Assembly: GCA_036787775.1 (NCBI GenBank)
Contig: DAIQOR010000001.1
Span: 183,286-247,285, forward strand
Direction of reading: 5' to 3'
Length of the DNA: 64,000 nucleotides
From: a bacterium
GTDB taxonomy: Archaea; Nanobdellota; Nanobdellia; Pacearchaeales; GW2011-AR1
Shown piece after piece: positions 21,463 to 42,091 of this stretch. A model generated the notes under the pieces. It saw nothing but the letters and a program-made list of their open reading frames with translations, was not told the DNA's origin and made no database searches. Position numbers and translations under genes: made by a program. Position 1 is the first letter of the stretch. Every line of letters starts with the position of its first letter.

Positions 21463-22170
21463 TTACCACACTCTTATGAACAAAACGCCATACTTTATAT
21501 TTGCTTTGTCATCAATATAACTTAATAAAATTTCATCAGTATAAATATTTACACTTTCCGGAGGCTTCTGCTCATACCTAATAACCTCGCCATCATCCGG
21601 CGTAAAAACAAAATCAAAATCCCCCTCAATAATTTTCAAAGTGTCTTTCTTCAGAGTTTCATAATAACCATCAGTTCCCAACGAACTATTTGTTTCATTA
21701 ATCAAACTATAAAAAACATATTCCTTCGTGCTAACGGAACCAATTGCTGTATTCGTTAAGCCCTCTTCGCAATTCACAGAAGTTTGAAGTGTTTCAAGAG
21801 CAGTAGAATAATACAATTCTTTCACACCAATCATAGTAATATCTTCATTAACACTAATTCCCACCAAATTATCTCCTGCTTTTGCAACATACCCATAATC
21901 TTCACTACCAATATCCAAATCAGTTTTCGCCAAAGTTATACAGTTTCCATCCTCATTCTTAAAAATAACCTTAGTCAACTCCGTCGAAAAATTCTGAACC
22001 AAACTAACTTTCAAATTTTCCAACAAAACTTTTTTACTTTCATCAACTTTCAAAACAGGTTGCAAAGTCGAATACAAAAAAACCAAGAACGTAACAAAAA
22101 CCACGAACGACAAAACAATTCCAACATGTGAACCTTTTTTTCTCATCATTTTAAATGAACAACCTCGCAC
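21463..22170 (-). CDS. pilin-like / pilus assembly accessory protein
   Basis: It has a basic N-terminus followed by a hydrophobic helix. It overlaps the upstream platform gene. Confidence 0.4.
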   Translation of the reverse strand: MRGCSFKMMRKKGSHVGIVLSFVVFVTFLVFLYSTLQPVLKVDESKKVLLENLKVSLVQNFSTELTKVIFKNEDGNCITLAKTDLDIGSEDYGYVAKAGDNLVGISVNEDITMIGVKELYYSTALETLQTSVNCEEGLTNTAIGSVSTKEYVFYSLINETNSSLGTDGYYETLKKDTLKIIEGDFDFVFTPDDGEVIRYEQKPPESVNIYTDEILLSYIDDKANIKYGVLFIRVW

Positions 22171-22996
22171 CTGCAGACACGATGAAAGCCATAATCACCA
22201 ACGCGAAAGAATGTTTAACACCTGCCTTCACACTTCCCTCGGACAATTTACCAATTGCCAGCCCACTAAAAAATCCCTGAGCCAAAAGCAAATATAAAAA
22301 CGAACTCGAAATTTCCGCCTGACTTATTCCCCCGCCTCCAGCAGTAACTCCCGTAACGCCAAGCCCACCGCTCCCAGTATTCAAATCCGCAATTCCCGAA
22401 ACCATCGGCAAAATTTTAAATTGCATAACTAAAATAATAACAATAAAAATAAAAAAGATAATATAACCTTGAACAACTAAAGTCGAAATCACAGCTTTCC
22501 TCTCCTTTTTTAATTTATCCGACAAACTAACAGCCTCGGCAACCGACTCCAAAATCTCCCCAATATCTCCGCCCGCTCTCTCTGCCTGACCAATTAAAGT
22601 CAACGCCCGCGAAATAGTTTTATTTTTTACATCTTTAGAAAAAGTCTCCAACGCAACATTCAACGGAATTCCCATACTAATCTGATTCGCAAGTTTGTTA
22701 ATATTCTCGCTCAAAACCCCATAAGGTTTATTTTTAACATTAAGAATACTTTTACTTATCGGCGTCCCGGCTTTAACACTCTCAACCAAATTCCGCGCGA
22801 ACTCCAAAAACATTTCTTCCTTCTCGCCCGCAACACGATTTTCATTTATTAAAGTAATCACAAAAGGCAAAGCCCCGACCAAAATCCCCACGCCAATTAT
22901 CAAAAAGAAAGCATTCGAGCTCATAAATAAAAGTGAAATAAGCAAGATAAAAACACCTGCTCCAATTCCTGAATAATGTAATTTATTTAATTCCAT
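22151..22996 (-). CDS. type IV pilus platform protein (T2SSF domain, TadB/FlaJ-like half)
   Basis: It has multiple TM segments and a cytoplasmic T2SSF-like domain. Confidence 0.6.
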   Translation of the reverse strand: MELNKLHYSGIGAGVFILLISLLFMSSNAFFLIIGVGILVGALPFVITLINENRVAGEKEEMFLEFARNLVESVKAGTPISKSILNVKNKPYGVLSENINKLANQISMGIPLNVALETFSKDVKNKTISRALTLIGQAERAGGDIGEILESVAEAVSLSDKLKKERKAVISTLVVQGYIIFFIFIVIILVMQFKILPMVSGIADLNTGSGGLGVTGVTAGGGGISQAEISSSFLYLLLAQGFFSGLAIGKLSEGSVKAGVKHSFALVIMAFIVSAGARLFI

Positions 22997-24082
22997 CTAA
23001 CCCGCCCCCTCCGGCTGTTTCAAATGCAAAAACATTATAAAAACAAAATTTATCAACGAAACTCCCGCAACCATAATTAAACTAATCATCCCAGTACTTA
23101 AAGAAATTCCAAGCCCACTAATTTTCATCATCATCAGCAACAACATTAAAATCATCGGCGCGGCAATCACAACACTGATATAAATATCCATAAAAGTCTC
23201 CGACGCCCGAGTCTGTTTTTCTCTGTCAAGTTTATACTCAAACATAAGCGTCTCCGCCCGTTTATTAAAAAACTCCGTAAGATTTCCACCCGAATTTATC
23301 GAAGTCGCAAGCCCGTTAAAAATCTCCGCAAGTTTCCGACTTGAACAATTAAACGCCCGATTCCTCAACGCTGTAACCAAATCATAACCCAAAACATTTG
23401 TCTCATTAAGTAATTTAATCAATTCCTTCTCGGTATAAGGATATTCGTGCGTCGAAACAACAATACTAAAAATTTTACTCGGTTCAATCATCGAACCCGA
23501 AATTGAAGCCATGTGAATCGTCGCGAAAGGAAGTTCTCGGTCAATCCGTGCTTCAATAGATTTTTTCTCCAAAGAAGGATAAACAAACATCGAAATAAAA
23601 GTCACCGCAGGAATTAAAACAATAATCCAAACAAACATAACCATCCGACTCAAAAATCCTTCTCCCGCAAAAACAATCATTGGAAACGGATCAAAACTAA
23701 AAAACAAAAAGAAAATAAAAAAAAGAAACCCAACTCCAGCAGAAATCAAAGTCGTCAACAAAATCAAAGAAATATAATTCACCGGAAGAAATTGCAGATT
23801 AGATTTAATTAAATCTCTTTTCATAGAATCAAAAGCTTTATTGTCCACAAGCACCGAAGATTTTTTGTAAAACATTTTACTCGCCAACTGAACATAATTA
23901 TTTGGCTTTGCCTCAACATCTTTTTCCTCTTTCTCTTTTTTCTCCTGTAATCTTTTCAAAGTTTCCTTTTCAAAATCCGTAAGCCGATATTTCTCGTCCA
24001 TCTTCCTCGCCAACAATTTTTTTTCTCGAACTTCTACCTTTGAAAGCTTTCGCACCCCTTTAACCATAAAAAATAGAAACAA
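22997..24082 (-). CDS. type IV pilus platform protein (T2SSF domain, TadC/FlaJ-like half)
   Basis: It is a polytopic membrane protein adjacent to the secretion ATPase. Two T2SSF genes indicate a split FlaJ. Confidence 0.6.
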   Translation of the reverse strand: MFLFFMVKGVRKLSKVEVREKKLLARKMDEKYRLTDFEKETLKRLQEKKEKEEKDVEAKPNNYVQLASKMFYKKSSVLVDNKAFDSMKRDLIKSNLQFLPVNYISLILLTTLISAGVGFLFFIFFLFFSFDPFPMIVFAGEGFLSRMVMFVWIIVLIPAVTFISMFVYPSLEKKSIEARIDRELPFATIHMASISGSMIEPSKIFSIVVSTHEYPYTEKELIKLLNETNVLGYDLVTALRNRAFNCSSRKLAEIFNGLATSINSGGNLTEFFNKRAETLMFEYKLDREKQTRASETFMDIYISVVIAAPMILMLLLMMMKISGLGISLSTGMISLIMVAGVSLINFVFIMFLHLKQPEGAG

Positions 24083-24101
24083 ATTAGATTATTAAATATT
24101 C

Positions 24102-25661
24102 CTATTGAATCCCGTATTCTTTCAAAACTTCCAAAGGTTTTTTATAATAATTATTTATGATTTCCTGAACTTTTTCAAATCCAAAAACTCCCTGAACTTG
24201 CATCTTATGCAAAAGTTGAACTCTTCTGGCAAATTCCCTTTCCAATTCTTCTCTTTTAATTCCATACCGTTTCATAATTTTTTTAAAAATATGACTATTA
24301 CTTTTAAAATAAAATTGGTCTTCCCCAGGACTCCAAACAAAAGGCGTGTTCGTAATTGCAACCCCTTTTTCACTAACATTAATTATCTCAACAATTTCTT
24401 TCAACTTTCTCGTGTCTTGTTTTTTAACAATCGCGTGAGTCATAATACAAACACAATCCAAAACATTCAACAGCGTCGGTGAAAGTTCAATCGGCGGAGT
24501 TTCCAATCTTTGAATAACAGTCTCAACCGAGTCCGCGTGAATAGTTCCAATCGACGAGTGTCCTGACGCCATACCCTGAAAAAGAACATTCGCTTCCTTT
24601 CCCCTAACCTCACCAACAATTACATAATCAGGAATCTGTCTAAAAGAACTTTTCAACAAATCAAACAAAGTAACTTCTCCAGCTGTCCCGCCTCCAGTCG
24701 CACCACGCACAACACTCGGCAACCAATTCTCCCTCGGCAAATTCAACTCACGAGTGTCCTCAATTGAAACAACTCTATCTTCCGGCGGGATAAAAAACGC
24801 AAACGCATTCAACAAAGTCGTCTTACCCGAACCCGTTCCACCAGCGATAAGCACGTTCATTTTATATTGTACAAGCATCCAAAGATACGCCAACATTTCA
24901 GGACTCAAAGTTCCAAACTCAATCAGCTGAGGCGGAGTCCACGGCGTTTTAGTAAATTTACGAATTGTAAAAGTCGGACCTCTACTCGTAATATCTTTCG
25001 TATAAGTCGCATTAACCCTCGAACCATCCGGCAAACTCGCATCAAGAATCGGATTCGCGTAAGAAATATATCTTCCACTTCTCTGCGCCAACTTTTCAAC
25101 AAAACTTTCAAGAACCGTAATATCATTAAAAATCAAATTCGTTTTAACATTTCTATAAACACGATGAATCATATAAAGCGGAGTATCGACGCCGTTACAC
25201 TCAATATCCTCGACGAAATAATCTCTCAGCAACGGGTCAAGTTCATTAAACCCGATAAAATCCCGACAAAGATAATAAAAAATCTTCCGATAACTTTCAT
25301 AAGGAATATTCATCCCTAACTCCACCGCCAAAATTTTAAACATTCTATCAATATAATCCATCAACTCCGAAATATCTTTCTGAATAACTTTATCAAAATT
25401 AATCATATTCTTAATCGCAATAATTAATTCGTCTTTCTGCTTTTTCTCAACATCTGTCAAAGCTGGTTCCTCGACATCATAAATAACTTCAGAAGTTTTT
25501 GCATTCCAATAAACGTGTGCAAACGCAAACGGCGACACCAACGCGTACCGAACATTAATCCGCGACTTGTCCAATTGTTTCTTCATCGTCGGAATCTGCG
25601 GATTATAATTTATCTCGACCTTCGGGTAATTTCTAATATCGTTTTGAACTTTCGTCACCAT
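24102..25661 (-). CDS. FlaI/PilB-family secretion ATPase (type IV pilus / archaellum assembly)
   Basis: It has Walker A (LIAGGTGSGKTT), Asp box, Walker B and His box and is 519 aa. Confidence 0.8.
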   Translation of the reverse strand: MVTKVQNDIRNYPKVEINYNPQIPTMKKQLDKSRINVRYALVSPFAFAHVYWNAKTSEVIYDVEEPALTDVEKKQKDELIIAIKNMINFDKVIQKDISELMDYIDRMFKILAVELGMNIPYESYRKIFYYLCRDFIGFNELDPLLRDYFVEDIECNGVDTPLYMIHRVYRNVKTNLIFNDITVLESFVEKLAQRSGRYISYANPILDASLPDGSRVNATYTKDITSRGPTFTIRKFTKTPWTPPQLIEFGTLSPEMLAYLWMLVQYKMNVLIAGGTGSGKTTLLNAFAFFIPPEDRVVSIEDTRELNLPRENWLPSVVRGATGGGTAGEVTLFDLLKSSFRQIPDYVIVGEVRGKEANVLFQGMASGHSSIGTIHADSVETVIQRLETPPIELSPTLLNVLDCVCIMTHAIVKKQDTRKLKEIVEIINVSEKGVAITNTPFVWSPGEDQFYFKSNSHIFKKIMKRYGIKREELEREFARRVQLLHKMQVQGVFGFEKVQEIINNYYKKPLEVLKEYGIQ

Positions 25662-25707
25662 CTTCTTTAAAGTATAAGATAAAAATAGTTTATTAATTTA
25701 ATGCTTG

Positions 25708-28700
25708 TTATCTTTTACAGCACCAGTCGGGAGAATCATCACTTGTATTATGATAAGTTAAATTAGTTTCAACACCCGAAGAGTCTCTGGTAAATATATC
25801 TGCAAGTGGCCTTACTCCTGGCTCGCTAACGCCACCTTTTTCATAAACAATCTGAGTTCCATCTGGAGACCAAGAGGCTTCATATCCATAGGGCAAGGGT
25901 GTAGTTTCGCCATTGCTGAGATCCATAATATCCAACCCCTCAAGAATAAGTTTACGACCATCTGGAGAAATAATATTATTAATTTTTCCAGCAAATTCCA
26001 CCGGCTCAAGACTTATTTTTGTAAGTCCTGTTCCATCAGTATTTATCGAATAAATGTGTTCATCATATTCTTGGCTATGCACAAGATAGATTGTCTTTTC
26101 ATCATTTGACCAACCGAATGAAATATAAGGTTCATTATCTCCAAGAATACCTCCCATTACTTTTGTTTCTTCTCCACCATTAACCGAAGAGAAATAAACC
26201 CCGTCATAAGTTTCCGAGTCAGAATTAACTCGTGTAAACACAACTTTGTCTCCTTTTGGAGAGATGATTGGAAAGAGATCACACATAGCATTTTCCGAAG
26301 TATTTTCCGTAATATTAAATCTTTCAGTTCCATCGGCATTTATCTTAACAACGTTACAAAAAAGATCCTTATCATCACTATAAACAAGAATATTATCAAC
26401 AGGGGATAAAGAAAACAGAGGATCATTATCATCTCCCTCATACCCGCTCGAAATTTTTACAATATCGCCCCCGTTGGAATTCATTGTATAAAGTTCTCTC
26501 CGCCCACTTCTATTAGATACAAAAGCAAGCCCGCTACCGTCGGAAAACCACAAAGGAAAAACATCCTCCGAAGAATTATTTGTAATTCTCATTAAATTTC
26601 CTCCGCTCGGAGACATAGTATAAATTTCAGAGTTCCCGTCTCTAAAAGAAACAAAAGCAATTTTTCCATTATATCCTGTGATACACCCAAAATGAATCTC
26701 CTCATCCCCGTCGTCACAATCTGTATTATTTGTAGAATATCCCGACGGCAAATTTTCCCCAGAACATATTTGTTCCAACGGAGAAAAGTTATCTCCATAT
26801 CCATCTCCATCAAAATCTATATACCCTTCTAAAAATTGATAAACAGAATCATCCGAATCATTACAATCAGTCCCTAAACATTCTGAACCCTCGCCGTAAC
26901 CATCCAAATCTGCATCCACGCAATCTAAACAATTATCATAAACACTTCCATCAGAATCATCACAATCTAAATTATTTCCCGAATATCCCGACGGCAAAGT
27001 CGCACCAGAACAAATTTGTTCAAGCACTGAAGAATTATCTCCGTAGCCATCCCTATCAAAATCTAAAAATCCTCCTAAAATTTGATAAGCCGAAACATCA
27101 AAATCATCACAATCGCTTCCCAAACAATCAATACCTTCACCATAATTATCTAAATCATTATCGACGCAGTTTGGACCTGAAGAATTATTCGAAACACCCC
27201 AAGAAGGATTAAAATCCCCGTTCGGGTTATCTGTCAATTTAAATAAATGATTTCCATCTGAGTCAATCATATATAACTGGTGTGGTTCTCCGCTTGCACC
27301 CTCGTCAAAAACTATCGAGTGCCCACTTGGGGACCAAGAAGGGTTTCCACTTATTTCATTACTACTTGTCAATCGAGCTGGATTACTTCCATCAGAATTC
27401 ATTTTCCAAATATTCATTCTACTATCCATGCTCTGTGAAAATGCTATCTGAGTTCCATCTTTCGAAAATTCAGGGGTATCCCCTCGAGCAGTGTAAGTTG
27501 TTAACTGAGTAATATTAGAACCATCAGAATTCATTTTCCAAATTTTTCCAAGACCAATTCTTTGAGAACAAAAAGCAATCTCGCCCAAAGAAGACCAAGA
27601 AGGATCGACGTCTTCCGATTCAAAAGTTAATTGTGTCAACCCAGTTCCATTGTCATTTATCACATAAAGGTTTCCTCTTTTTTCATAAACAATCTTATTA
27701 TCCTGAGACCAAGACGGATTTTGTTCAGAATCATTCAAGGTAGAAGTTAATCTTACCAAATTAGAACCATGAACATCCATAATATAAATATCGCCTTCTC
27801 TCGAGAACGCAATCCTCTCGCCATCCGGAGAAATAGAAGGATCTATCTCTGTCAAAGAATTATTTGTTAATTGAACTATGTTAGAATTATCCCCCTCCAT
27901 AATTTTGATTTCCAAATCATTTCCATCATATGAAGAATAAACTATTTTCCCATCAAAAGTAATCATCTCTGGATTAGATTCAACCTCACAATTCCCCGTC
28001 CCAACATTACATTCATAACCTGAAACGCAACCAGTATCGACGCAAGTTTCAACAACTTCTTCAGAGCTCGCAATAATCTCTTCAAAGTCAATTGGCGTAG
28101 CTTCATAATCCACAAGAGTCTTACCAAGAATTTCTACTTTCATTCCAACTCTCGCTTCAGCCCCAAGATACAAATCCCAGTTCGGGATATCCGCATCAAA
28201 TCTAAAGGATTGAAACACGCTCGCGTTCGGACCAACAACGCCATAAAGTAAAAAATCCGCCCAAAGTCCCAAATAAGTTTCCACATCAACATTTGCATTC
28301 ATAATTGGTGCATTAAAATCATAATTATAATCATAGTCTTTTAAAATTTTCCAACCATTATCATATTCGATTCCTGCAGTAAACTCAGCAAATTGCGAAA
28401 CGCCAACTTTCAACTCTTTTCCTTCCCCATCAGCACCAACTCGCAATTCAATATGGGGAGTAAAATAAATTGGAAAACAAACAGTCCAAGGATTAGGAAC
28501 GCAAGTAGCAAGAGTTGGCAAATCATACTCTACCAAAGTAACTCCATCACTCATTCTAAATCTTTCAGCCGTCGATTCAATACTTAATGCCGAGTCCTCA
28601 CTTCCAGTCAAACCAATCAAGGCATAATTTAATTTCCCCCATTCAATGTCCGCCTCAAATAATAATTCAGAATCAAATTTTATGTGGCCATTCGCAAAAA

Positions 28701-29238
28701 CTTGATCATCAATCGTTCTTTTATTTCCATCATAATCAAAAAGCACGACGTCAACTAAATCAAAACTAAAAAGTTCTGCTTGCGGAGTAAAAGTCACGCC
28801 CTTTCTCAACTTTTGCATTGAAGCACCCTCGGGGGACAATTTCATTTTAATTCTAATTTCTGCATTTTCAAAAGCATCTTCCAAAGTCGCCTGTGACGTT
28901 TCAAGAATCTTCCCTTCATCTTTGACGCTTTCAACTTTTCTCAAAACACCTCTCGGCACAGTATCGTTAAGCCCACTAATCACATCCCCCACATGATAAT
29001 TTGTAGAACTATCAAACGTGAAAACACCATCGCTGTATGACCATTCCCCTTTAGAAAAATTATCCTCCAAATTATAAGCCCCATTCTCCCCCGAAGGATT
29101 ATTAATCGTAATTGGATTTATTTCCTTTCCAGTTTTTTCATCCCCCGAACCAGAACCACAATATGAACTCATCGCAATAGCACCAGCCAATAAAATATTT
29201 TTTCCCTTACGCAAAATTCTCTCGAGACTCATAAGCAA
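25708..29238 (-). CDS. giant (1176 aa) surface protein with TolB-like beta-propeller repeats and Cys/Asp-rich DLDGYGEG repeats
   Basis: It has an N-terminal signal with a Cys at residue 27 (SSYCGSGSG), repeated DG(S/T)N..LT blades, and four C..D.DLDGYGEG...C.D.D modules. Confidence 0.6.
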   Translation of the reverse strand: MLMSLERILRKGKNILLAGAIAMSSYCGSGSGDEKTGKEINPITINNPSGENGAYNLEDNFSKGEWSYSDGVFTFDSSTNYHVGDVISGLNDTVPRGVLRKVESVKDEGKILETSQATLEDAFENAEIRIKMKLSPEGASMQKLRKGVTFTPQAELFSFDLVDVVLFDYDGNKRTIDDQVFANGHIKFDSELLFEADIEWGKLNYALIGLTGSEDSALSIESTAERFRMSDGVTLVEYDLPTLATCVPNPWTVCFPIYFTPHIELRVGADGEGKELKVGVSQFAEFTAGIEYDNGWKILKDYDYNYDFNAPIMNANVDVETYLGLWADFLLYGVVGPNASVFQSFRFDADIPNWDLYLGAEARVGMKVEILGKTLVDYEATPIDFEEIIASSEEVVETCVDTGCVSGYECNVGTGNCEVESNPEMITFDGKIVYSSYDGNDLEIKIMEGDNSNIVQLTNNSLTEIDPSISPDGERIAFSREGDIYIMDVHGSNLVRLTSTLNDSEQNPSWSQDNKIVYEKRGNLYVINDNGTGLTQLTFESEDVDPSWSSLGEIAFCSQRIGLGKIWKMNSDGSNITQLTTYTARGDTPEFSKDGTQIAFSQSMDSRMNIWKMNSDGSNPARLTSSNEISGNPSWSPSGHSIVFDEGASGEPHQLYMIDSDGNHLFKLTDNPNGDFNPSWGVSNNSSGPNCVDNDLDNYGEGIDCLGSDCDDFDVSAYQILGGFLDFDRDGYGDNSSVLEQICSGATLPSGYSGNNLDCDDSDGSVYDNCLDCVDADLDGYGEGSECLGTDCNDSDDSVYQFLEGYIDFDGDGYGDNFSPLEQICSGENLPSGYSTNNTDCDDGDEEIHFGCITGYNGKIAFVSFRDGNSEIYTMSPSGGNLMRITNNSSEDVFPLWFSDGSGLAFVSNRSGRRELYTMNSNGGDIVKISSGYEGDDNDPLFSLSPVDNILVYSDDKDLFCNVVKINADGTERFNITENTSENAMCDLFPIISPKGDKVVFTRVNSDSETYDGVYFSSVNGGEETKVMGGILGDNEPYISFGWSNDEKTIYLVHSQEYDEHIYSINTDGTGLTKISLEPVEFAGKINNIISPDGRKLILEGLDIMDLSNGETTPLPYGYEASWSPDGTQIVYEKGGVSEPGVRPLADIFTRDSSGVETNLTYHNTSDDSPDWCCKR

Positions 29239-29309
29239 TTCAACAAAAACCCTTATTTAAACATTATCATAAAAGAAATATTAATAAACCATTTTCTCTT
29301 TAAGACTTA

Positions 29310-29846
29310 ATGCAAAAGAGGGGGCAATTTTATTTGTTAGCAGCGATAGTAATAATCGCGGTCATCGTAGGGTTCGCAGGAGTATCAAACTACACCCAAG
29401 TCCGGTCGCACGAAACAGTTTACAACGTCGGCGAAGAACTCGGAATCGAAGGCGGAAATGTTGTAGAATATGGAGTTAGTGAAGGTGACATTCAAACTAC
29501 AAAATTTATAGATGATTATTCTCAATATGCTGATGACCCAAATCGAGATATAATTTTTATTTTTGGAACTAAAGATACTCTTGTCGGATATACTTATGAA
29601 CAACTTGTAACCGGGGGAATTTTTTTTGCGGGGAGTACGGGAATTACGGGAACAGAAATAACTACTGGAGAAAAAGTACCAATAAATAGTGAAGTAGATA
29701 TGCAAGGAAATAAAATAACAATTTATTATAAAGACGAAACAGAAACAGAAATCCCCTATGAATTTAAAATTAAACCAGGAGAAAACTTTTACTTCGTCGT
29801 TATCCAAGACATCGGCGACGAGAGAATAATTATTAAAAGCAAATGA
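29310..29846 (+). CDS. archaeal type IV pilin-like protein (class III signal peptide)
   Basis: The N-terminus is MQKRGQFYLLAAIVIIAVIVGFAG. Confidence 0.55.
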   Translation: MQKRGQFYLLAAIVIIAVIVGFAGVSNYTQVRSHETVYNVGEELGIEGGNVVEYGVSEGDIQTTKFIDDYSQYADDPNRDIIFIFGTKDTLVGYTYEQLVTGGIFFAGSTGITGTEITTGEKVPINSEVDMQGNKITIYYKDETETEIPYEFKIKPGENFYFVVIQDIGDERIIIKSK

Positions 29847-30448
29847 AATTAAAAAAAATAAAAAAACAAAATAAAAAAGCAGTCAGCCCGATGATAGCAT
29901 ACATACTCCTCGTCGTCGGAGCAATCGCAATGGGCGGACTCGTTTATCAATGGATGAAATCATATGTCCCAGCCGACGAAGTAAAATGCGACGACGGAGT
30001 CTCAGTCTTAATTGAAAGTGCAAATTGCGTGGGAAGCCTCCAAGCAGGATATAGTTTAGAATTAGAAATAAAAAACAACGGAAGATTCAGCATTGCAGGA
30101 GTTTATGTCAAAGCAACGAAAGATACGGAAGCAAAAATAGCTACAGTGGATTTGACAGACAATGAAAATGGAATTTATTTTTATGGAACATCAGGGGGAG
30201 TTCCACCAGCAACTAAAACAAATTCTTTTCCAACCACTGATTTGGAGAATATTTTAAGTATTAATTTCCCTCCATTAATGATTCCCACAGATGAGAAGAA
30301 AGGAATTCCAAATCCAACAGATGGTTTCTATGTGGAAGTCACACCAATGCAATATAAAGTGGTAAATAACAAAAACACCGAGGCATTTTGCGGAAGTGCA
30401 CAAGTTCGAAGTTTGGTTGTGTGTGAAGATTCTTCTACAGCTTCTTAA
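29843..30448 (+). CDS. archaeal type IV pilin (DUF361-type class III signal peptide)
   Basis: It has KKAVSPMIAYILLVVGAIAMGGLVYQW, the classic archaeal pilin N-terminus. Confidence 0.7.
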   Translation: MKLKKIKKQNKKAVSPMIAYILLVVGAIAMGGLVYQWMKSYVPADEVKCDDGVSVLIESANCVGSLQAGYSLELEIKNNGRFSIAGVYVKATKDTEAKIATVDLTDNENGIYFYGTSGGVPPATKTNSFPTTDLENILSINFPPLMIPTDEKKGIPNPTDGFYVEVTPMQYKVVNNKNTEAFCGSAQVRSLVVCEDSSTAS

Positions 30449-30500
30449 GAAAAAAATAGAGTATAGAAATCTTTAAATAATCCCTTTTGTTAAGAAAAAC

Positions 30501-30716
30501 ATGAGAAGTTACAGTACAAAAACAACTACATATGAAGTTTTCAATGCAAAAATGACTATAGATACATCTGCAGATTTATCTCTTTCTGGAAGCAATAATA
30601 TGTGTAAGCCATGCCAATGTAATTGTAGGACTTGTATTGGGGGAAGAGCGCCAGCAGATGAAACTTTTAATGAGGCTGAAATTGAAAATGCATTGGAACA
30701 ACTTTTAGCTGCGTAA
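30501..30716 (+). CDS. Cys-rich small peptide (candidate RiPP precursor or small metal-binding protein)
   Basis: It is a 71-aa ORF with the cluster MCKPCQCNCRTC (30600-30635) followed by an acidic helical tail. It lies immediately upstream of the HExxH and rSAM-SPASM genes. Confidence 0.35.
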   Translation: MRSYSTKTTTYEVFNAKMTIDTSADLSLSGSNNMCKPCQCNCRTCIGGRAPADETFNEAEIENALEQLLAA

Positions 30717-30752
30717 AATTGATGTTTTTCTCTGAAACATTTAATAAAAATT

Positions 30753-31424
30753 ATGGAAAAGAAATTAAATCTAAACTTTTGTAATTTGATATATTCTTCA
30801 GAGGATGTTGAAATTGAAGATGAAAAAAATATTCTAATTAAAGCATATGAAATAAACAAAACATTTGCAAAAATAGAAATTCCAAAATTTGATGTTAGAC
30901 TTATTTATTCAAGAAAAGAATTTAACAAAATTTGGGGGATGGAAACTAAAGATTATATTTCTGCATTTACTAAAGATGATAATATTGGGATTTTTGCCCG
31001 AGGAGTTTTTGAGAAAGAAACTAGATGGGAAAAAGAAGAATTTGAAATAGCATTAATTCATGAAATAAATCATCTTTTTTATCAAGAATTAAGGGATGAT
31101 GAATATGATCCATTATGGTTATCTGAAGGTTTAGCAACATTTATGCAACATGGAAAGAAAAAATTTAATTATAAAGATAAATTAGAAATAAAAAAAGAAA
31201 TTTTAAATCAATCTTTCGAGGAAATGACTTTTGAAAGTTACCAAGTATTTACCTTATTTGTTGAATATTTAATTTTGGAGTTTGGAGAAGATAAAATTTT
31301 AAAATTAATTGAAGGATTAAGTAATGGAGAGGTATTAAATAATCTTTTTCAGGAGTTTTATAAAAAATCTTTTGAAGAATTAATTGAAGATGGAAACAAA
31401 TACCACGAAATTACTCGAAGTTGA
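30753..31424 (+). CDS. HExxH zinc-metallopeptidase-like protein (peptidase MA-like)
   Basis: It has HEINH followed by a downstream SEGLA glutamate motif and no signal peptide. Confidence 0.45.
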   Translation: MEKKLNLNFCNLIYSSEDVEIEDEKNILIKAYEINKTFAKIEIPKFDVRLIYSRKEFNKIWGMETKDYISAFTKDDNIGIFARGVFEKETRWEKEEFEIALIHEINHLFYQELRDDEYDPLWLSEGLATFMQHGKKKFNYKDKLEIKKEILNQSFEEMTFESYQVFTLFVEYLILEFGEDKILKLIEGLSNGEVLNNLFQEFYKKSFEELIEDGNKYHEITRS

Positions 31425-32496
31425 AGATTTTAAGAATGCTTACCAAGAAACAGAGATTCCCCATTGCAAGTATCTAAAAATAAAATCTCCTCTTGCAACG
31501 CAGTTTGAATTAACTTCGGGGTGCAATCAAAAGTGTATTTTTTGTTATAATGTCTGGAAAGGGATTTGTTCAAAACAAGATTCAATTATATTATCCAAAG
31601 AAGAACAATTAGAAGTTATCGATAAACTTATCGAAAATGAAATCTTTGATATTATCTTTTCTGGAGGGGAACCACTTTTAGTAGGCTGGTTAGAAGAGTT
31701 AATTGAAAAATGTTCAAAAGCAAAAATGTACACAACAATAATCACCAATGCTGTTTTAATGGATAAAGAACGGGCAAAAAGTCTCAAGGAAGCCGGGCTA
31801 AATGATTTGCAAATTTCAATCCATCACTATAAAGCTAAAATAAATGATAAATTAACCAATCTTCCCGGGTCTTTTGATGAAACAATTAAAGGAATAAAAA
31901 ATTCTTTGGAAATATTTGGAGTTGAAAATATAAATATTAATATGGTTGCCTTGCCTGAGACATATAAGGACGTTTACAAAATGGCTAAATTTTTGCATTC
32001 AATCGGAATTAGTTCATTTAGTGTTGGCACCCCTTCTGCAACGGGGGAAATGAAAAAGAATAAAAATTTAGTTATAAATAAAAAAATGTTTTTAGAAATT
32101 TATAGTCAATTAAGGAGGACAAAAAAAGATTTTAATATGCATGTTGGTTTTTCTGGAGGATTTCCCCTTTGTATACTTCCTGAGATTAATGAAGATGTTT
32201 TATTGATGGTTGGAAATTATTGTGATGCAGGTTTAAATCAAATCATTATTGGTCCAAGTGGCGAGTTAAGACCTTGTGTTTGTCTTGGAGAAAATTTAGG
32301 AAATATATTAAAAGATGATCTAAAAGAAATCTGGAGTAAAAATAATTTTTTGTTAAATATTCGAGAAATGAAATTTGTTCCCAAGGAATGTAGAGGATGT
32401 CAATATATTTCAATTTGTAGAGGGGGATGTCGTGCATCTGCCCAAGGATATTTCGGAAAATTAAATGCAATCGATCCCTTAATGGAAAATGAATAA
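31384..32496 (+). CDS. radical SAM enzyme with C-terminal SPASM domain
   Basis: CX3CX2C (CNQKCIFC) is at 31522-31545. It has a GGEPLL SAM motif and a C-terminal Cys-rich SPASM pattern (C..C....ECRGCQYISICRGGC). Confidence 0.8.
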   Translation: MKMETNTTKLLEVEDFKNAYQETEIPHCKYLKIKSPLATQFELTSGCNQKCIFCYNVWKGICSKQDSIILSKEEQLEVIDKLIENEIFDIIFSGGEPLLVGWLEELIEKCSKAKMYTTIITNAVLMDKERAKSLKEAGLNDLQISIHHYKAKINDKLTNLPGSFDETIKGIKNSLEIFGVENININMVALPETYKDVYKMAKFLHSIGISSFSVGTPSATGEMKKNKNLVINKKMFLEIYSQLRRTKKDFNMHVGFSGGFPLCILPEINEDVLLMVGNYCDAGLNQIIIGPSGELRPCVCLGENLGNILKDDLKEIWSKNNFLLNIREMKFVPKECRGCQYISICRGGCRASAQGYFGKLNAIDPLMENE

Positions 32497-32746
32497 AGAC
32501 TTTATAATATTTAAAAATCCTAATTTAAGATTTAGGCAAGAGGATTTTGGAGGGGTTGCAAAACTTAAATTAAAAACTTTAATTCTCAATAGACAGCAAT
32601 ATAAATTAATTACTGGGATAAAAAAATTTTTAGTTTACAATAAATTAGGAGATTCAGAAAGAAAAATTGCAGATAAGCTAATTGAGAGGGATATTTTTCT
32701 AAAAATTGATTTAACTCGGGCAAGAGAATTAGGATTTAAGGATTAG
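32489..32746 (+). CDS. PqqD-like small protein (possible RiPP recognition element)
   Basis: It is 85 aa. The PNLRFRQEDFGG..L..LILN...Y.LI pattern resembles PqqD/RRE. It overlaps the rSAM stop. Confidence 0.35.
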   Translation: MNKDFIIFKNPNLRFRQEDFGGVAKLKLKTLILNRQQYKLITGIKKFLVYNKLGDSERKIADKLIERDIFLKIDLTRARELGFKD

Positions 32747-32824
32747 GAATAACGATTTTTCAAGAGAGAAATTACCTCCTTATTAATCCAAAGAATTTAA
32801 AAATAACAAACTCATCATTATAAC

Positions 32825-33271
32825 ATGAAAAAGAAAAGAGGTTTATCTCCGGTCATCGCAACAGTTCTATTAATCGCCATGGTCGTCGTCATAGGAATGA
32901 TAGTTTTTTTATGGTTCCGAGGAATGAGCCCAGAAGCAATAATGAAATTCGGAGAAAACATCGAACTCGCTTGCAACAAAATAAATCTCGAAGCAAGTTT
33001 CTCTGGCAACAATTTAGTAATCTCGAATTTAGGAAACATCCCAATCTCTGGAATGAAAGTTAAAATTTATGACAGCGAGGGAAATTACGAAAGCAAAGTT
33101 CTTTCAGGATTTAAGCAATTAGATAAAGGTGGAGTTTCAGAATCAGAATTATCTGTGGATGGTGGCACAAAATTGTTCTTAACTCCAGTCCTAACTGGTG
33201 AAACAAAATCCGGAACAAAAGAATACACTTGTAAAAATATTGAATATGAAGTTTTAATAGAAAATGAATAA
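32825..33271 (+). CDS. archaeal type IV pilin (class III signal peptide)
   Basis: It has the textbook N-terminus MKKKRGLSPVIATVLLIAMVVVIGMIVFLW. Confidence 0.8.
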   Translation: MKKKRGLSPVIATVLLIAMVVVIGMIVFLWFRGMSPEAIMKFGENIELACNKINLEASFSGNNLVISNLGNIPISGMKVKIYDSEGNYESKVLSGFKQLDKGGVSESELSVDGGTKLFLTPVLTGETKSGTKEYTCKNIEYEVLIENE

Positions 33272-33815
33272 TAAAGCACTTTCTGGAGTTGTAACAACAG
33301 TAATTATGATTGGCCTCGTCGTCGCGGCAATTTCAATCGTGTGGGTTTTTGTAAATAATTTAGTAACCGATGAAATTGCTGGAGCCGAATCTTGCTTCGA
33401 AGTTTTTGACCAAATAAAAATAGGGGAATATACTTGTATGAAAAAAGGAATTATTCCAGATACTGTTCCTCCAGAATACAAAAATCTTTATTTAAGACTT
33501 TCAATCAAAGTTGGAACTACTGATTTAGAAGAACTTTTAGTTTCTATTGGAGGAACTGAAGAAACAAAAAGTTTTAGATTAACAAAGGAAGGCACAAGTG
33601 AATCTTTTTTAAGTTCAAAAGAAAATGGAGAATATGGAGACAAAGTTTATCTTCCAGAAAAAGAATCGGGTAAAACATATTTTATTGATATGGATACTTT
33701 TTATATTCACAATCCTTACAAAATAGAAATAACCCCCATAGTTGAAGGAGAATCTTGTGATATTGCGGATGTATATTTAGAAATTCCTGAGTGTGATGAT
33801 CTGTATTTCAGTTAA
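33264..33815 (+). CDS. archaeal type IV pilin-like protein
   Basis: Its N-terminus KALSGVVTTVIMIGLVVAAISIVWVF overlaps the previous pilin gene. Confidence 0.6.
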   Translation: MNNKALSGVVTTVIMIGLVVAAISIVWVFVNNLVTDEIAGAESCFEVFDQIKIGEYTCMKKGIIPDTVPPEYKNLYLRLSIKVGTTDLEELLVSIGGTEETKSFRLTKEGTSESFLSSKENGEYGDKVYLPEKESGKTYFIDMDTFYIHNPYKIEITPIVEGESCDIADVYLEIPECDDLYFS

Positions 33816-33821
33816 AAAAAT

Positions 33822-36329
33822 TTATTCAACATATCTAATTATTGTTCCATCTTTTCCAACAGCAATTTCTCCCTCGACACTATACAAAGCATTTCCGGAA
33901 GGGTTTGATATTTCCTCAAAATTATCTCCATGAAGATATAAAATTGTTCCATCAGTTTCATCCTGTTTTCCTCCAACTGCCCAAATTCTTCCTTGTGAAT
34001 CTTCAGAAATTCCATGAACCCAGTAACTTGTAGGAATTGTCTTTTTATTCCAATTATTCCCATCATATTCAAAAATAGCACCATTTCCAGGGTATCCATT
34101 AATTCTTCCTGTTGCAAAACTACCTTCCAAGTCTTCTAACTCTGAACTAACATAACTCTCATCCCAATCTTCTCCTCCATTTTGAGAATTATACAAATAA
34201 GTACTCTTTCCAAACACCCAAACATCATTCGCAGAATTGACTTCAACTTTTCTGTAACTTATATCTGTGAAAATGGAGTAAGTATTCATTTCTTCCATAG
34301 CATTCGGATTAGAAGAAGTAACCCTCGCAATTAAATCATCTGTAGCACCAAACCAAATACCTGTTTCAGCATTTCCATCACAACTCAACCATTGCTCGTT
34401 TCTAACCGTGAGATTTACAAAATTCTCTAGAGTGGTACCATTTGAAGTGTACATTGTATCAAAAACATTAGGAATAATAAACAACCTATTCTCATCTCCA
34501 CAAACATCATTTATATTCGCTGTTGTTGTCAAATAAGTTTCCTTGTGCCAATAATTTCCATTCAAACTATGAATCAAAGTTCCATTTTCTCCCCAAGCAA
34601 AATATGAATTTCCAATTTTTTTAATTCCTGTAAGATTTTCTGTCGTCGGAGAAACCAAGTTCATCCAAGAGCCAGTCAAATAAAAAGGGTCTACATCGCA
34701 ATCATTAGTCACATCATTACAAATATATCCGTCGTCACACCCTGTCACATCACAACCAGAAACAGTATCATCGTCGTCATCTCCAGTAGGATTTATTTCA
34801 CAAACATAATCCACATTACAAAAATAACCCTCTCCACAATCAGGTTCACAAGTTTCAACAACATTTGCATCGCAAAGCAAAGTTTCCAAATTACAAGTAT
34901 AACCTGAATCACATCCAGTCACATCACAACCAACAACAACATTCTCCAAGCAAACTAAACTTTCCAAATCACAACTATAACCTTCTTCACAAGCAGGCTC
35001 GCAAGTCTCAACAACCTCACAAACATTTGTTCCAAGAGTATAAAACCCTTTCTTAGCTAAAGAAGCAAATTCCCATTTCCCCCCGTCGCTGTCATCACAA
35101 TCACCCCCCAAATCACAAGACTCCCCGTAACCATCTAAATCCCCATCAACACAAGAATCACACCCAGTTTCAGTGTAATTATTCAAATCATTGTCACAAG
35201 AATCATCTGATTGAACACACTCTCCGCTTGCATCATAAGCATGCCCGTCGTTATCATCATCCATACACCCCCGAGGTGTCAAAGCATAAAATCCCCGACA
35301 ATCATTATTCGCAATAAAATCAAAACTAAAACTTCCCGCTCCTTTCTTTCCCCAAAACTTACCCCAAGAATTTCTAAATGTAAATCTTTGCAAGTCATCG
35401 TCGTAACCAGTAACCAAAACAGAATGGAAACCAATAATTTCCCCATCAACATTTTCAATAACTCCAACATCGTTTCCATTGTTAGCATTCCATTTAGCAT
35501 TTTTGTAAACAGGCACAGTTAAAACCACATTCGCATCATCAGAAAGTGCCGATTTCAAAGCATCAACATTATAACCCGGAACGTAAAAAAAATCCATCGT
35601 TCCCCATTTCGCCTCGTAAACAAGTTCCTCGTCAGAAGGTTGCGAATCAATCACATTTTTAACATTCTTAGAATATTCCCAAACAGAAAAAGGCACAATC
35701 AATTGATTCATTAAACTATTAAACGCCGCCGAAACATACCACCCCCCTGACAAAGCCTGTTCCAAAGTTTTGTTCCCTTTCCCATTAAATAAAAGATGTG
35801 GCTCACTAAGTCTCTTAATAGAATTAAAATCCCCTAACTCTTCACACAACATCGCCTCTAAAGCAAGAGTTGTCGACTCAGAAACGCAAGTCGGCAAAAT
35901 CCCCTGGTCATGAACTTCCAAACATTCATTAGCAAAATATTCCTCTGCATTCTCTGCACTCTTAGGCAACATCGGAGCCGAATAAACTTTCTGAACTTTA
36001 AAATTTCCAGTTTCAAATTCTGCAGGTGCTTGAGGAGCATCCATAAGACACACAACATTCCCCTCACCAGCATCAAACTCAACACATTTACCGACGCTAC
36101 CAGCTTCAACAGTCAAAGCATCAAATTGAGTATAATCAGAAATATTTGGAGACAATCCTTCAACAACAGGAGTTGGTTCACTCACAGGTTTGTTCTCCGA
36201 ATCAGAATTACCGCAAGAAATCATCGACGCTGCCAAAATAGGAGTCAAAGCAGTCGCTAAAACTTTCCTTCCAGTCTTCTTACCAAACTTCAAAAGCCCA
36301 TCTAAATTCATCACTTTAGAATGAATCAA
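33822..36329 (-). CDS. secreted papain-like (C1 family) cysteine peptidase with Cys-rich repeats and C-terminal propeller-like region
   Basis: It has an N-terminal signal with a Cys at residue 39 (MISCGNS). A QG...C...S Cys region, the His region HSVLVTGYDDD and NSWGKFWGKKG match the papain catalytic triad context. It carries ETCEP.C.EGY.C repeats and DLDGYGE. Confidence 0.6.
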   Translation of the reverse strand: MIHSKVMNLDGLLKFGKKTGRKVLATALTPILAASMISCGNSDSENKPVSEPTPVVEGLSPNISDYTQFDALTVEAGSVGKCVEFDAGEGNVVCLMDAPQAPAEFETGNFKVQKVYSAPMLPKSAENAEEYFANECLEVHDQGILPTCVSESTTLALEAMLCEELGDFNSIKRLSEPHLLFNGKGNKTLEQALSGGWYVSAAFNSLMNQLIVPFSVWEYSKNVKNVIDSQPSDEELVYEAKWGTMDFFYVPGYNVDALKSALSDDANVVLTVPVYKNAKWNANNGNDVGVIENVDGEIIGFHSVLVTGYDDDLQRFTFRNSWGKFWGKKGAGSFSFDFIANNDCRGFYALTPRGCMDDDNDGHAYDASGECVQSDDSCDNDLNNYTETGCDSCVDGDLDGYGESCDLGGDCDDSDGGKWEFASLAKKGFYTLGTNVCEVVETCEPACEEGYSCDLESLVCLENVVVGCDVTGCDSGYTCNLETLLCDANVVETCEPDCGEGYFCNVDYVCEINPTGDDDDDTVSGCDVTGCDDGYICNDVTNDCDVDPFYLTGSWMNLVSPTTENLTGIKKIGNSYFAWGENGTLIHSLNGNYWHKETYLTTTANINDVCGDENRLFIIPNVFDTMYTSNGTTLENFVNLTVRNEQWLSCDGNAETGIWFGATDDLIARVTSSNPNAMEEMNTYSIFTDISYRKVEVNSANDVWVFGKSTYLYNSQNGGEDWDESYVSSELEDLEGSFATGRINGYPGNGAIFEYDGNNWNKKTIPTSYWVHGISEDSQGRIWAVGGKQDETDGTILYLHGDNFEEISNPSGNALYSVEGEIAVGKDGTIIRYVE

Positions 36330-36347
36330 AAGTATTTAAATTTATCG

Positions 36348-37013
36348 TTAGGCGAAACCAACATCAATAGAAATCTTATTACTCAAATAGACACAAGAAC
36401 TATCTACACATTTAGCTTTAGCAGTAGTTGAATCATATCCCTCTGGATAACTCGTACAAGTAGAAGAATCAGAACAAGAAACTCCTGTTCCTACCTCAAC
36501 ATTTCCTTTATTCAAAAAACTTATTTTATGAATTGTCGTCGTCGTCCCAATTTCTTTTTCAGCAGCTTCACTATCCCCTCCAAATTGAAGATCATAATTA
36601 TCATAATCTTTCGTAAAAATAACTCTGTAAGTTTTCCCTGTAAACGCTTCAGTTCTATATTTTATTCCAGCCCCAATATCATTCTCCGCTTGTGGTTCAT
36701 CAGAAACCAACTCACTATATTTATACCTGCTCTCCATTTCAAATCTCAATTCATCCCCCAAAGAATTAACAATCAAACTTCCTTTCTTTATTCCTATTTC
36801 AATAATCTGTTTATTTCCAGGACCGCCCTGAACAACATTAGAAATAATCCCGTCAATCTCTTTTATCATTTCAATCGACTGCGTAATCGTCGCCTTATCT
36901 TGCATTTCCTCAATCCTCGGCTTCGCAACCGCCAACACCGCCGCAATCATCACGAACGCAATCAGCGTATAAACCACAGTCTCAATCCAAACTTGCCCCC
37001 TTTTTTTATTCAT
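36348..37013 (-). CDS. pilin-like protein with class III signal peptide
   Basis: The N-terminus is MNKKRGQVWIETVVYTLIAFVMIAAVLAV. Confidence 0.5.
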   Translation of the reverse strand: MNKKRGQVWIETVVYTLIAFVMIAAVLAVAKPRIEEMQDKATITQSIEMIKEIDGIISNVVQGGPGNKQIIEIGIKKGSLIVNSLGDELRFEMESRYKYSELVSDEPQAENDIGAGIKYRTEAFTGKTYRVIFTKDYDNYDLQFGGDSEAAEKEIGTTTTIHKISFLNKGNVEVGTGVSCSDSSTCTSYPEGYDSTTAKAKCVDSSCVYLSNKISIDVGFA

Positions 37014-37639: not shown

Positions 37640-37894
37640 ATGGAAGAAGAACAGAAAATTACAATATTAATTGAGCAGGATGAAGATGGACTTTATGTAG
37701 CAACCGTGCCAGATATTCAAGGGTGCCACACTCAGGGAAAATCAGTTTCTGAAGTTCTGGAAAGAATCAAAGAAGCGATTGAAGTTTGCATCGAAGGAGA
37801 TAACGAAGAAGTAAAACCTCTCAAATTTGTGGGCGTTCAACAAATTCCATTTATGCCTTTTAAGACATTAAAGACAAAAGTTATTTCTAATTAA
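37640..37894 (+). CDS. hicB: HicB-family antitoxin
   Basis: YVATVPDIQGCHTQGKSVSEVLERIKEAIEVCIE is typical of UPF0150/HicB. Confidence 0.7.
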   Translation: MEEEQKITILIEQDEDGLYVATVPDIQGCHTQGKSVSEVLERIKEAIEVCIEGDNEEVKPLKFVGVQQIPFMPFKTLKTKVISN

Positions 37895-37895
37895 A

Positions 37896-38120
37896 ATGTC
37901 CAAACTCGCACGAATATCAGGAAAAGATATGTGCAAAATTCTTGAGAAATTGGGTTTTGAAAAAGTTTACGGAAAAGGAAGTCATGTCCGATTTAAACAT
38001 CCCGACGGGAGAAGAACAGTTGTTCCAATTCACGCAAACGAAAAACTTGGAATAGGTTTGATTGGAGAAATATTAAACCAAATAAAAATAACGCGAGAAG
38101 AATACGAAAAATTAATTTGA
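37896..38120 (+). CDS. hicA: HicA-family toxin
   Basis: KGSHVRFKHPDGRRTVVPIH...LGIGLIGEILNQ is typical of YcfA/HicA. Confidence 0.75.
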   Translation: MSKLARISGKDMCKILEKLGFEKVYGKGSHVRFKHPDGRRTVVPIHANEKLGIGLIGEILNQIKITREEYEKLI

Positions 38121-41317: not shown

Positions 41318-42091
41318 TCAATAACTCTTCCACAAAACCAACTTCCCAAAATCATCTCTCAAAAACAAAGTGTCCCCGCCATCAGTCCAAACATAATCTT
41401 TTCTATCCCAATAAATTTCATTTTCTGTATTAGTTTTATTCCCAACAATCAAACTAACTTCTCCTTTCCCATCCAAAATAAAATTTGGAAAAATAAATTT
41501 TTTCCGACCCTCGTCCTTAACTTCCCAGTTCTCTAAATCGCAATCAATCCCACAAATATTTTCAAAAACAACAATTTCATTTTCGTAATCCAACTTTTTC
41601 AAATTAACACAACTCGCACAAGCGTCCAAAGATTTCACACAAAGATTTTTTCCACAATTTTTCCACGCCTCCAAAAATTCAAAATAATATTGATCTCTTC
41701 CCAAAAAATAAATATTCGCATAACCTTCCTCAACCAATTTTTTATTCACATTCTCATTATTATAAAAAACATAAGCAAGCTTTCGACCATACAGGTCTTT
41801 TTTATCGACGCCAAACTTCAAAACAACTTTCTTTCCCAAAATTAAATTATCCAAAAAATCCTTCGCCTCAGAATAATAAATTTCTCCTCTCTCTGGACAA
41901 TTAATTCCCAACAGCCGAACCGATTCATTGTTCGCAACAAAAGTGTCCCCATCAATAACCCTCTCGACAACCACAACTTCTTTTTCTTCAAAAAAATTCA
42001 CGACGGCAGAATCCAATTTTCCATAATTAATTCCAACCAAAATAACAACTGCAAAAACCAAAATTAAAATATCTAATTTTTTATTAACCAT
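41318..42091 (-). CDS. membrane-anchored staphylococcal-nuclease (SNase/thermonuclease)-like nuclease
   Basis: VIDGDTFV...VRLLGINCPE matches the SNase catalytic region. It has an N-terminal TM. The probable start is the MVNKK at 42091 (the ORF is open to 42124). Confidence 0.6.
   Translation of the reverse strand: MVNKKLDILILVFAVVILVGINYGKLDSAVVNFFEEKEVVVVERVIDGDTFVANNESVRLLGINCPERGEIYYSEAKDFLDNLILGKKVVLKFGVDKKDLYGRKLAYVFYNNENVNKKLVEEGYANIYFLGRDQYYFEFLEAWKNCGKNLCVKSLDACASCVNLKKLDYENEIVVFENICGIDCDLENWEVKDEGRKKFIFPNFILDGKGEVSLIVGNKTNTENEIYWDRKDYVWTDGGDTLFLRDDFGKLVLWKSY

Follow-up and report, generated by a model that had tools for sequence, protein, structure and literature searches.

A papain-family (C1) cysteine peptidase encoded within a type IV filament locus of Candidatus Pacearchaeota

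What would an archaeon do with a large, probably exported protease of the papain type, and what is the gene for such an enzyme doing among genes for pilin-like proteins? These questions are raised by a minus-strand open reading frame (ORF) of 835 codons at 33822-36329 in a 64-kb stretch of contig DAIQOR010000001.1; we call this whole stretch of 64,000 nucleotides (nt) the window. An earlier note, made from the letters of the DNA alone, had described the product as a secreted papain-like peptidase fused to Cys-rich repeats and a propeller, and had considered it a plausible effector of host-cell interaction. The window also encodes archaeal EF-2, EF-1alpha, FttA/aCPSF1, RtcB and an archaeal CCA-adding enzyme at a GC content of ~34%, and clustering at 90% identity groups its EF-2 and RtcB with proteins annotated as Candidatus Pacearchaeota archaeon. 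By these markers, the source organism is a member of Candidatus Pacearchaeota (DPANN). Judging from sequence comparison and a modelled structure, the gene product is a genuine papain-family (C1) cysteine peptidase. Gene-by-gene comparison indicates that its gene is part of a locus for a type IV filament, and that this locus is conserved in one further DPANN genome. Residue numbers below are those of the 835-residue ORF unless stated.

The catalytic domain is recognized by several independent comparisons. Residues 136-330 match PF00112 (Peptidase_C1) with 33.5 bits, above the Pfam gathering score of 20.7 (E 5.9e-8). A phmmer search of the sequences in the PDB returned xylellain (3ois) as the best match (E 5.6e-8), with ficins, cathepsin K and Der p 1 next in rank; with a family profile the xylellain match reached E 1e-30. 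Gln142, Cys148, His302 and Asn320 align with the catalytic residues of ficin, xylellain and the cathepsins, and the motifs that contain them, QGILPTCVSEST (QGILPTC) from residue 142, HSVLVTGYDDD from 302 and NSWGKFWGKKG from 320, stand in the papain order that the earlier note had given them. Conservation was counted in an alignment of 72 subfamily members that cover the domain: Gln142 and Asn320 are retained in 72/72, His302 in 71/72, Trp322 in 70/72 and Cys148 in 68/72. The Gly-Gly pair at 195-196 is also present in the protease. An AlphaFold (AF2) model of residues 57-365, built from a 23-sequence alignment, has a mean predicted local distance difference test score (pLDDT) of 87.4 and a predicted TM-score (pTM) of 0.88. 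When this model was compared with the PDB by Foldseek, 290 matches were returned at E <= 1e-3, with xylellain 3ois at the top (E 1.5e-15); papain-family enzymes account for 50 of the 50 matches listed. Profile score, alignment of the four catalytic residues and their conservation in the subfamily, and a modelled fold like that of xylellain and the cathepsins all bear out the papain-like assignment. Neither of the outcomes that the earlier note had named as fatal to its claim, a missing C1 HMM match or misaligned triad residues, was seen. The enzyme class itself is ordinary and well known.

The wider family is less familiar, and its extent depended on the search method. Word-indexed searches with the full protein found the protein itself and one relative, P0002; the C-terminal domain found one near-identical fragment, and a family profile found two proteins. 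An exhaustive hidden Markov model (HMM) search with a two-sequence profile returned 245 cluster representatives at E < 1e-10, of which 47 are below 1e-30, and most of these 47 match over a short domain that precedes the C1 domain (the pre-domain) as well as over the C1 domain itself. By sequence, these proteins form an uncharacterised C1 subfamily of Myxococcales and DPANN, in which a predicted lipobox signal and then a two-Cys hairpin pre-domain come ahead of the C1 domain, and the C-terminal module behind it varies. The C-terminal modules of the relatives include MopE motifs, Kelch, PD40 and NHL/SGL propellers, fn3, Lcl_C and FGE-sulfatase domains, and the general design appears to be an anchored C1 head with an exchangeable binding module. 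The closest full-length relative, P0016, is a DPANN-type 639-residue 'C1A family cysteine protease' on JGI contig Ga0675941_002124, with 39% identity over 547 residues. Named source genomes of the members are Myxococcales, a 'Proteobacteria bacterium' and one Woesearchaeote. We dropped amino-acid composition as a proxy for archaeal origin: the contig of P0054, an AT-rich-looking member, is bacterial and encodes sigma-70 and GGDEF proteins. In a neighbour-joining tree the protease and P0016 form a pair, apart from the Woesearchaeota member, and the resolution is too poor to give a direction of transfer. C1A peptidases are known to occur in DPANN, their transfer between bacteria and archaea is common, and prokaryotic multidomain forms are numerous and were left unanalysed in the survey that reported this (Kordis and Turk, PMC10380794).

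The Woesearchaeota member (L004 2785-11261, contig JACQSP010000077.1) is itself a giant of 2049 residues, in which the C1 domain is followed by MopE motifs and then by dozens of repeats of the form 'WxKTFGG...D.A.SIQQT.DGGYIVAG'. A 761-residue paralogue encoded ahead of it has the same repeats and no protease domain.

Pilin-like genes flank the protease gene; two score above the cutoff of NCBIfam TIGR02537 (archaellin/type IV pilin N-terminal domain), and the remaining ones have class III N-termini of the KRG/KKA type. In L010, the locus around P0016, we found a counterpart of the protease and of each other component compared (Table 1); the radical SAM gene, which lies in the same span, has none there. 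By the spread of identities, the core filament machinery is conserved while the exposed components, the protease among them, diverge fast. The bacterial subfamily members that we examined have no filament neighbours, and the association appears to be specific to this clade. A survey of archaeal type IV filaments reports DPANN loci in which two platform proteins go with varied pilins and with accessory adhesins, and does not mention a protease (bioRxiv 10.64898/2026.04.22.720090). The 1176-residue PD40/DPPIV_N-type protein of the locus is likely to be a large adhesin of the same filament system. Its gene adjoins that of the FlaI-like ATPase, and a 212-nt stretch within the gene is duplicated in tandem (D1); Tricorn-like and Lcl_C domains are present in the L010 counterpart of the protein.

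The gene model is secure in all but its first codons. The ORF is far beyond chance, because it is long for a genome of 34% GC, has the C1 match described above, and encodes a protein that is called, identical over 829 residues, on 23 public contigs. We consider the ATG at residue 7 (coordinate 36311) to be probably the true start, because the public gene calls are 829 residues long, the N-terminus that it gives is similar to that of P0016 (MKLTDLLRKGKR versus MNLDGLLKFGKK) and a TATA-like box, TTTAAATA, lies ~20 nt 5' of it, within the 36-nt gap that follows the preceding gene. We read TTTAAATA as a putative archaeal TATA box. Numbered from this ATG, the lipobox residue Cys39 becomes residue 33.

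The N-terminus is predicted to direct export. The earlier note had suggested that the Cys of MISCGNS might be a lipid-anchoring site. Cys39 is indeed preceded by a basic and then a hydrophobic stretch, the signal fits a PROSITE-type lipoprotein rule, and the same signal is found in most relatives, all of which favors the lipobox reading. The residue at position -3 is Met, which the PROSITE-like rule allows and which is outside the strict [L/V/I] consensus. Almost all subfamily members have a lipoprotein-type signal at the start; 42/72 fit the strict PROSITE-like rule, and several more are one residue off. A high prevalence of lipoproteins is predicted for DPANN, where AliA, of the archaeal lipidation machinery AliA/AliB, occurs 'with some gaps' (PMC12462473). 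We also considered whether the protease has a signal of class III (pilin-type) and rejected this, as the [KR]-G/A cleavage motif is absent directly ahead of the hydrophobic stretch. Of the linker that follows Cys39, the C-terminal 13 residues (57-69) were the only part modelled, with pLDDT below 50 for residues 57-67. Next comes the pre-domain, which is peculiar to the subfamily and has the pattern AGSVGxC(x11)C.M..PQ; Cys82 and Cys94 are kept in 79-82% of the 72 relatives, and the strands are modelled at pLDDT 93-96. Profile matches to mature papain-family chains in the PDB begin at an LPxxVD motif after the pre-domain, which thus appears to occupy the topological place of papain-family propeptides. 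A Pfam scan found no family for the pre-domain, and scans of the whole protein and of its N-terminal part gave no match to the I29 propeptide.

Between the catalytic and C-terminal domains lies an acidic region (residues 350-548) that is 26% Asp+Glu, has almost no Lys or Arg, and packs 24 Cys, of 33 in the whole protein, into 199 residues. The region is common to P0016 (E 7e-13), and a Pfam scan found no family in it. Its first part, which includes DGDLDGYGESCDLGGDCDDSD, is MopE-like by eye only: a scan of the Cys-rich region on its own, at E <= 10, gave no match to PF11617 (MopE). The same family is matched by the relatives P0014, P0003 and P0036, and the Asp/Cys-rich motif of the protease recurs in the neighbouring 1176-residue PD40 protein (tblastn E 4.8e-5). 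The DLDGYGE motifs that had been reported here come down to one exact copy, at residue 397, and a degenerate second, DDDNDGHAYD, at residue 357. The three ETCEP repeats of the earlier note are in fact four 4-Cys units, two of ETCEP type (ETCEPxC at 441 and 492) alternating with two of GCDVTGCD type (467 and 525); a regular expression places them at 443-460, 468-486, 494-510 and 526-544, and they are also seen as DNA repeats of 72% identity (D5, D7). The 4-Cys repeats probably form a disulfide-rich stalk.

The C-terminal domain (residues 549-835) is probably a beta-propeller of the Ycf48/BNR type with ~7 blades. The proposal that it is a propeller is weakly supported, by sub-threshold Ycf48/BNR signals and by the periodicity of its motifs; the HMM scores are below their cutoffs and the structural model is unusable. 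PF14870 (PSII_BNR) scores 19.5 bits in the isolated domain against a cutoff of 27, and NCBIfam Ycf48 scores 16.4 against a cutoff of 326; a PDB profile match to Ycf48 8am5_S has E 5.9e-5, a value that sums four weak blade matches. The motif x-[ND]-G-x-x-[WFL], which is Asp-box-like, recurs every ~40-45 residues (SLNGNYW, TSNGTTL, SQNGGEDW, EYDGNNW, LHGDNF), a spacing that fits ~7 blades in 287 residues. Comparison of the domain with itself by hhalign gave a weak repeat signal (P ~0.02-0.03), and an AF2 model from a two-sequence alignment reached a pLDDT of 34.9. The homologues found for this domain are near-identical Pacearchaeota fragments only, P0152 among them, to which a metagenome scan added one near-identical locus.

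Close relatives differ within this domain. Compared with the Pacearchaeota loci L002 and L003, positions 33999-34460 are mostly 50-78% identical in DNA, with indels and one 60-nt block at 90%, while the flanking DNA of the gene is 95-100% identical. The variable stretch has the look of a cassette replacement rather than of point mutagenesis, and fits a target-recognition surface. Because it includes indels and identity falls to ~50%, the variation is unlike adenine-directed mutagenesis. We therefore rejected the gene as the target of a diversity-generating retroelement (DGR): no template-like repeat matches it, and its sole long repeats are its own Cys-repeat duplications. The convergent pilin-like gene at 33264-33815 (+), compared with the same two loci, likewise has blocks of 45-67% DNA identity among blocks of 92-100%; its patchy divergence suggests that hypervariability spans several surface genes of the locus.

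Which function would unite an anchor, a protease, a stalk and a variable module beside a pilus system? We favor, with confidence a little better than even, the reading that the protein is an exported, probably lipid-anchored and active C1 cysteine endopeptidase of this Pacearchaeote, which cleaves surface proteins at contacts made by the pilus. After export by the Sec pathway, lipidation on Cys39 would tether the protein outside the membrane and display it on the cell surface. The pre-domain would serve as a pro-segment or as a structural clamp, and the acidic 24-Cys region as a rigid stalk stabilized by disulfides or metal. The strain-variable, probably propeller-shaped module would capture a target and present it to the protease. 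The likely job of the enzyme would be to cut surface or extracellular proteins where the pilus system makes cell-cell contact, and such cleavage could serve access, attachment or amino-acid scavenging. The host-cell effector role that the earlier note had proposed is plausible, and somewhat more so now because the type IV filament neighbourhood is conserved. Pacearchaeota appear to be strongly host-attached, with minimal metabolism (bioRxiv 10.1101/2020.05.14.094862), which makes proteolysis at a host surface or for scavenging sensible.

A bolder extension, to which we give little credence, makes the protein a co-evolving accessory of the filament: a lipid-anchored 'cutting head' whose swappable, strain-variable C-terminal module (Lcl_C in L010, a propeller in the window) recognizes the surface of a particular host. 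Attachment would be the work of the pilus, and the protease would breach or harvest the host envelope. The module would have come from Myxococcales-like bacteria, which are predators, by transfer between the domains of life, and been repurposed for archaeal episymbiosis.

Several observations weigh against cleavage by an anchored, active enzyme at pilus contacts. The surroundings of the nucleophile are unusual: the protease reads QGILPTCVSE against a subfamily consensus of QGxCGWCVAH, so that LPT stands ahead of Cys148 where 75-92% of relatives have the residues of CGW, and residue 151 is Glu where 76% have His. The disulfide equivalent to papain C22-C63 is also lost, the partner position being Leu193. 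These departures could alter activity, and they are what would be expected if the domain were a weakened or inactive papain-fold module in a protein that works mainly as an adhesin or scaffold. We consider this very unlikely, given that Gln, Cys, His, Asn, Trp and the Gly-Gly pair are all retained. In addition, the nearest relative, P0016, reads QGELGNCVAH: it too is without the C and W ahead of the Cys and keeps the catalytic set intact. Because P0016 shares part of the departure in this way, the changed surroundings suggest a clade-specific variant rather than decay; they remain a caveat on activity. The anchor invites a different doubt. This is the sole lipobox ORF in the 64-kb window, so the lipobox could be an inherited bacterial trait whose function in the archaeon is uncertain, and removal of the pre-domain as a propeptide would free the enzyme from its N-terminal anchor. 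The main rival builds on this: the lipobox would serve for export only, the pre-domain would be removed autocatalytically, and protease, stalk and propeller would be released together into the medium as a shed nutritional enzyme, which would digest proteins of the environment or of lysed cells for amino-acid scavenging, independently of the pilus genes. The propeptide-like position of the pre-domain, the start of the mature-enzyme profile matches behind it, the placement of the anchor N-terminal to it, the pro-region that xylellain, the closest structure, has over its active site and the minimal metabolism of Pacearchaeota all speak for shedding. However, the hairpin is packed on the catalytic domain with high model confidence and has two conserved Cys, so that it looks like a permanent structural element; Pfam scans find no inhibitor domain of the I29 type; and the conserved placement in a filament locus argues for a surface-associated role. 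On balance we regard a shed enzyme as rather unlikely.

The filament link must be weighed in the same manner. It rests on two independent loci, and the contigs of P0014 (Woesearchaeota) and P0012, when examined, had no adjoining filament genes. The propeller fold of the C-terminal module is likewise no more than probable. If the link is real, it could also be of another kind: the enzyme might process its own filament system, trimming or maturing the 1176-residue PD40 protein or the pilin-like proteins, or remodelling the cell's own S-layer for passage of the filament, so that host proteins would not be its targets. Protease, PD40 giant, Peptidase_MA_2 and pilins do co-occur in both loci, and the protease and the PD40 protein of the window have the Asp/Cys-rich motif in common. 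Nevertheless, class III signal peptides are cut by aspartyl prepilin peptidases and not by papain-like enzymes (bioRxiv 10.64898/2026.04.22.720090), a strain-variable binding module would be unexpected for a fixed self substrate, and subfamily members outside the clade have no filament neighbours. A processing role is, in our judgment, quite unlikely. Cleavage of surface proteins at pilus-made contacts is the reading we retain.

Comparison with known systems indicates which parts of the protein are shared and which are its own. Xylellain, from Xylella fastidiosa, is the best match in both sequence and structure (Foldseek TM-score ~0.7); like the protease, it has the Q/C/H/N set of catalytic residues and, where an I29 propeptide would be, a short extension at the N-terminus. 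It has an N-terminal pro-region over the active site. It differs in being a single domain of 291 residues without stalk or C-terminal module, and identity in the structural alignment is ~19%; its profile match begins at position 46, past the two-Cys hairpin. Classical C1A enzymes (papain, ficin, cathepsins L, S and K, Der p 1) are alike in fold, in catalytic order, in the Gly-Gly substrate-binding pair and in the NSWG motif, at identities of 14-21%. Unlike them, the protease has neither an I29 propeptide nor the C22-C63 disulfide, and the residue after the nucleophile is Val where they have Trp. The Trp that precedes the Cys in the subfamily is replaced by Thr.

The multidomain relatives are closer in design. 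The Myxococcales lipoprotein C1 peptidases, of which P0002 is an example (C1, CEPEC repeats and FGE-sulfatase; 32% identity over 324 residues), also have a lipobox, the AGxVGxC...C.M..PQ pre-domain, a C1 domain, Cys-rich repeats and a binding module. They differ in ending in FGE-sulfatase, Kelch, PD40 or Lcl_C domains where the protease has a Ycf48-like one, in keeping CGWC and the disulfide, and in being bacterial, without type IV filament neighbours. P0016 resembles the protease in its signal, pre-domain, C1 domain, DxDGDGYG segment and 4-Cys repeats, and ends in Lcl_C instead of the putative propeller. The seven-bladed propellers of Ycf48/HCF136 have blades with which motifs such as NDVWVFGKSTYLYNSQNGGEDW align; their photosystem context has no parallel here, and the HMM scores are below cutoff.

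What appears new in this locus is the architecture of the subfamily, its conserved association with a DPANN type IV filament and the strain-variable recognition module. We know of no cultivated Pacearchaeote, and to our knowledge the means by which DPANN recognize hosts, attach to them and extract resources are largely obscure. The protease is a concrete, expressible candidate that is tied genetically to a filament locus and bears a strain-variable recognition module, and its papain-family activity would be easy to assay with E-64 and fluorogenic peptides. The subfamily falls among the multidomain prokaryotic C1A peptidases that the main evolutionary survey left unanalysed (PMC10380794).

Table 1. 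Positions in the window of the protease gene, its segments and the genes of the surrounding locus, with protein identity to the counterpart in L010
Feature	Position	Strand	Basis or detail	Identity to L010 counterpart
Whole gene, probable ATG to stop	33822..36311	(-)	829 aa; ORF as listed reaches TTG at 36329 (835 aa)	39%
Predicted Sec-type signal peptide and lipobox, residues 7-39	36213..36311	(-)	KFGKKTGRK n-region, VLATALTPILAAS h-region, M-I-S-C39
Ser/Pro/Glu-rich linker, residues 40-69	36123..36212	(-)	sequence
N-terminal pre-domain, residues 70-120	35970..36122	(-)	predicted beta-hairpin with Cys82 and Cys94, plus linker
C1 catalytic domain, residues 121-349	35283..35969	(-)	PF00112, PDB alignments, conservation, AF2/Foldseek
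Catalytic codons	Gln142 35904-35906; Cys148 35886-35888; His302 35424-35426; Asn320 35370-35372	(-)	plus Trp322
Acidic Cys/Asp-rich segment, residues 355-416	35082..35267	(-)	D-x-D-x-DG-x-Y motifs; includes DGDLDGYGESCDLGGDCDDSD
Four tandem 4-Cys repeats, ABAB order, residues 437-545	34695..35021	(-)	C-x3/4-C-x2-GY-x-C-x5-7-C
C-terminal domain, residues 549-835	33825..34685	(-)	sub-threshold Ycf48/BNR matches, Asp-box-like motifs
Strain-variable cassette within C-terminal domain	33999..34460	(-)	DNA comparison with Pacearchaeota loci L002, L003
Type IV filament locus	21463..37013	.	Pfam, NCBIfam, counterparts in L010
235-aa ORF, function unassigned	21463-22170			40%
Two T2SSF platform genes	22151-24082		Pfam	84% and 74%
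FlaI-like ATPase	24102-25661		family HMM match	83%
1176-aa PD40 propeller protein	25708-29238	(-)	Pfam	36%
Five pilin-like genes	29310-30448, 32825-33815, 36348-37013			45-54%
Peptidase_MA_2	30753-31424			28%
Radical SAM gene	31384-32496

The region as a whole appears rich in surface and extracellular functions. Inside the filament locus, positions 30501-32746 hold a 71-residue ORF with a Cys-rich core (CKPCQCNCRTCIGG), the Peptidase_MA_2 gene, a radical SAM/SPASM enzyme and an 85-residue ORF; this is a possible cassette of the type that makes ribosomally synthesized and post-translationally modified peptides (RiPP-like), inserted in the locus. Just past the locus, at 37640-38120 (+), are a HicB-like antitoxin (84 residues) and a HicA toxin (74 residues), with Pfam assignments taken from an identical contig. 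Beyond these lie genes for predicted secreted proteins at 41318-42124 (-), 39691-41169 (-) and 38754-39593 (-): a staphylococcal-nuclease and lamin-tail-domain protein, a PKD-domain protein, and a 279-residue protein with repeats of CGNG...C and a hydrophobic anchor at its C-terminus.

Further along the window, an 85-nt repeat pair of 81% identity (50888-50972 and 51272-51356) looks like the variable region and template of a DGR. One copy is at the 3' end of an ORF at 50350-50991 (213 residues, no Pfam match), and the other abuts an Rfam RT-16 RNA at 51069-51278 (92.7 bits). No reverse transcriptase ORF was seen near the pair and the RNA, and the mismatches are not confined to template adenines; together they may be a decayed or split DGR. 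A 54-nt duplicate of 85% identity (51478-51531 versus 51983-52036) copies the 5' end of an AP-endonuclease-2-family gene at 51980-52762 and sits 0.5 kb upstream of it, which suggests local rearrangement beside the RT-16 RNA.

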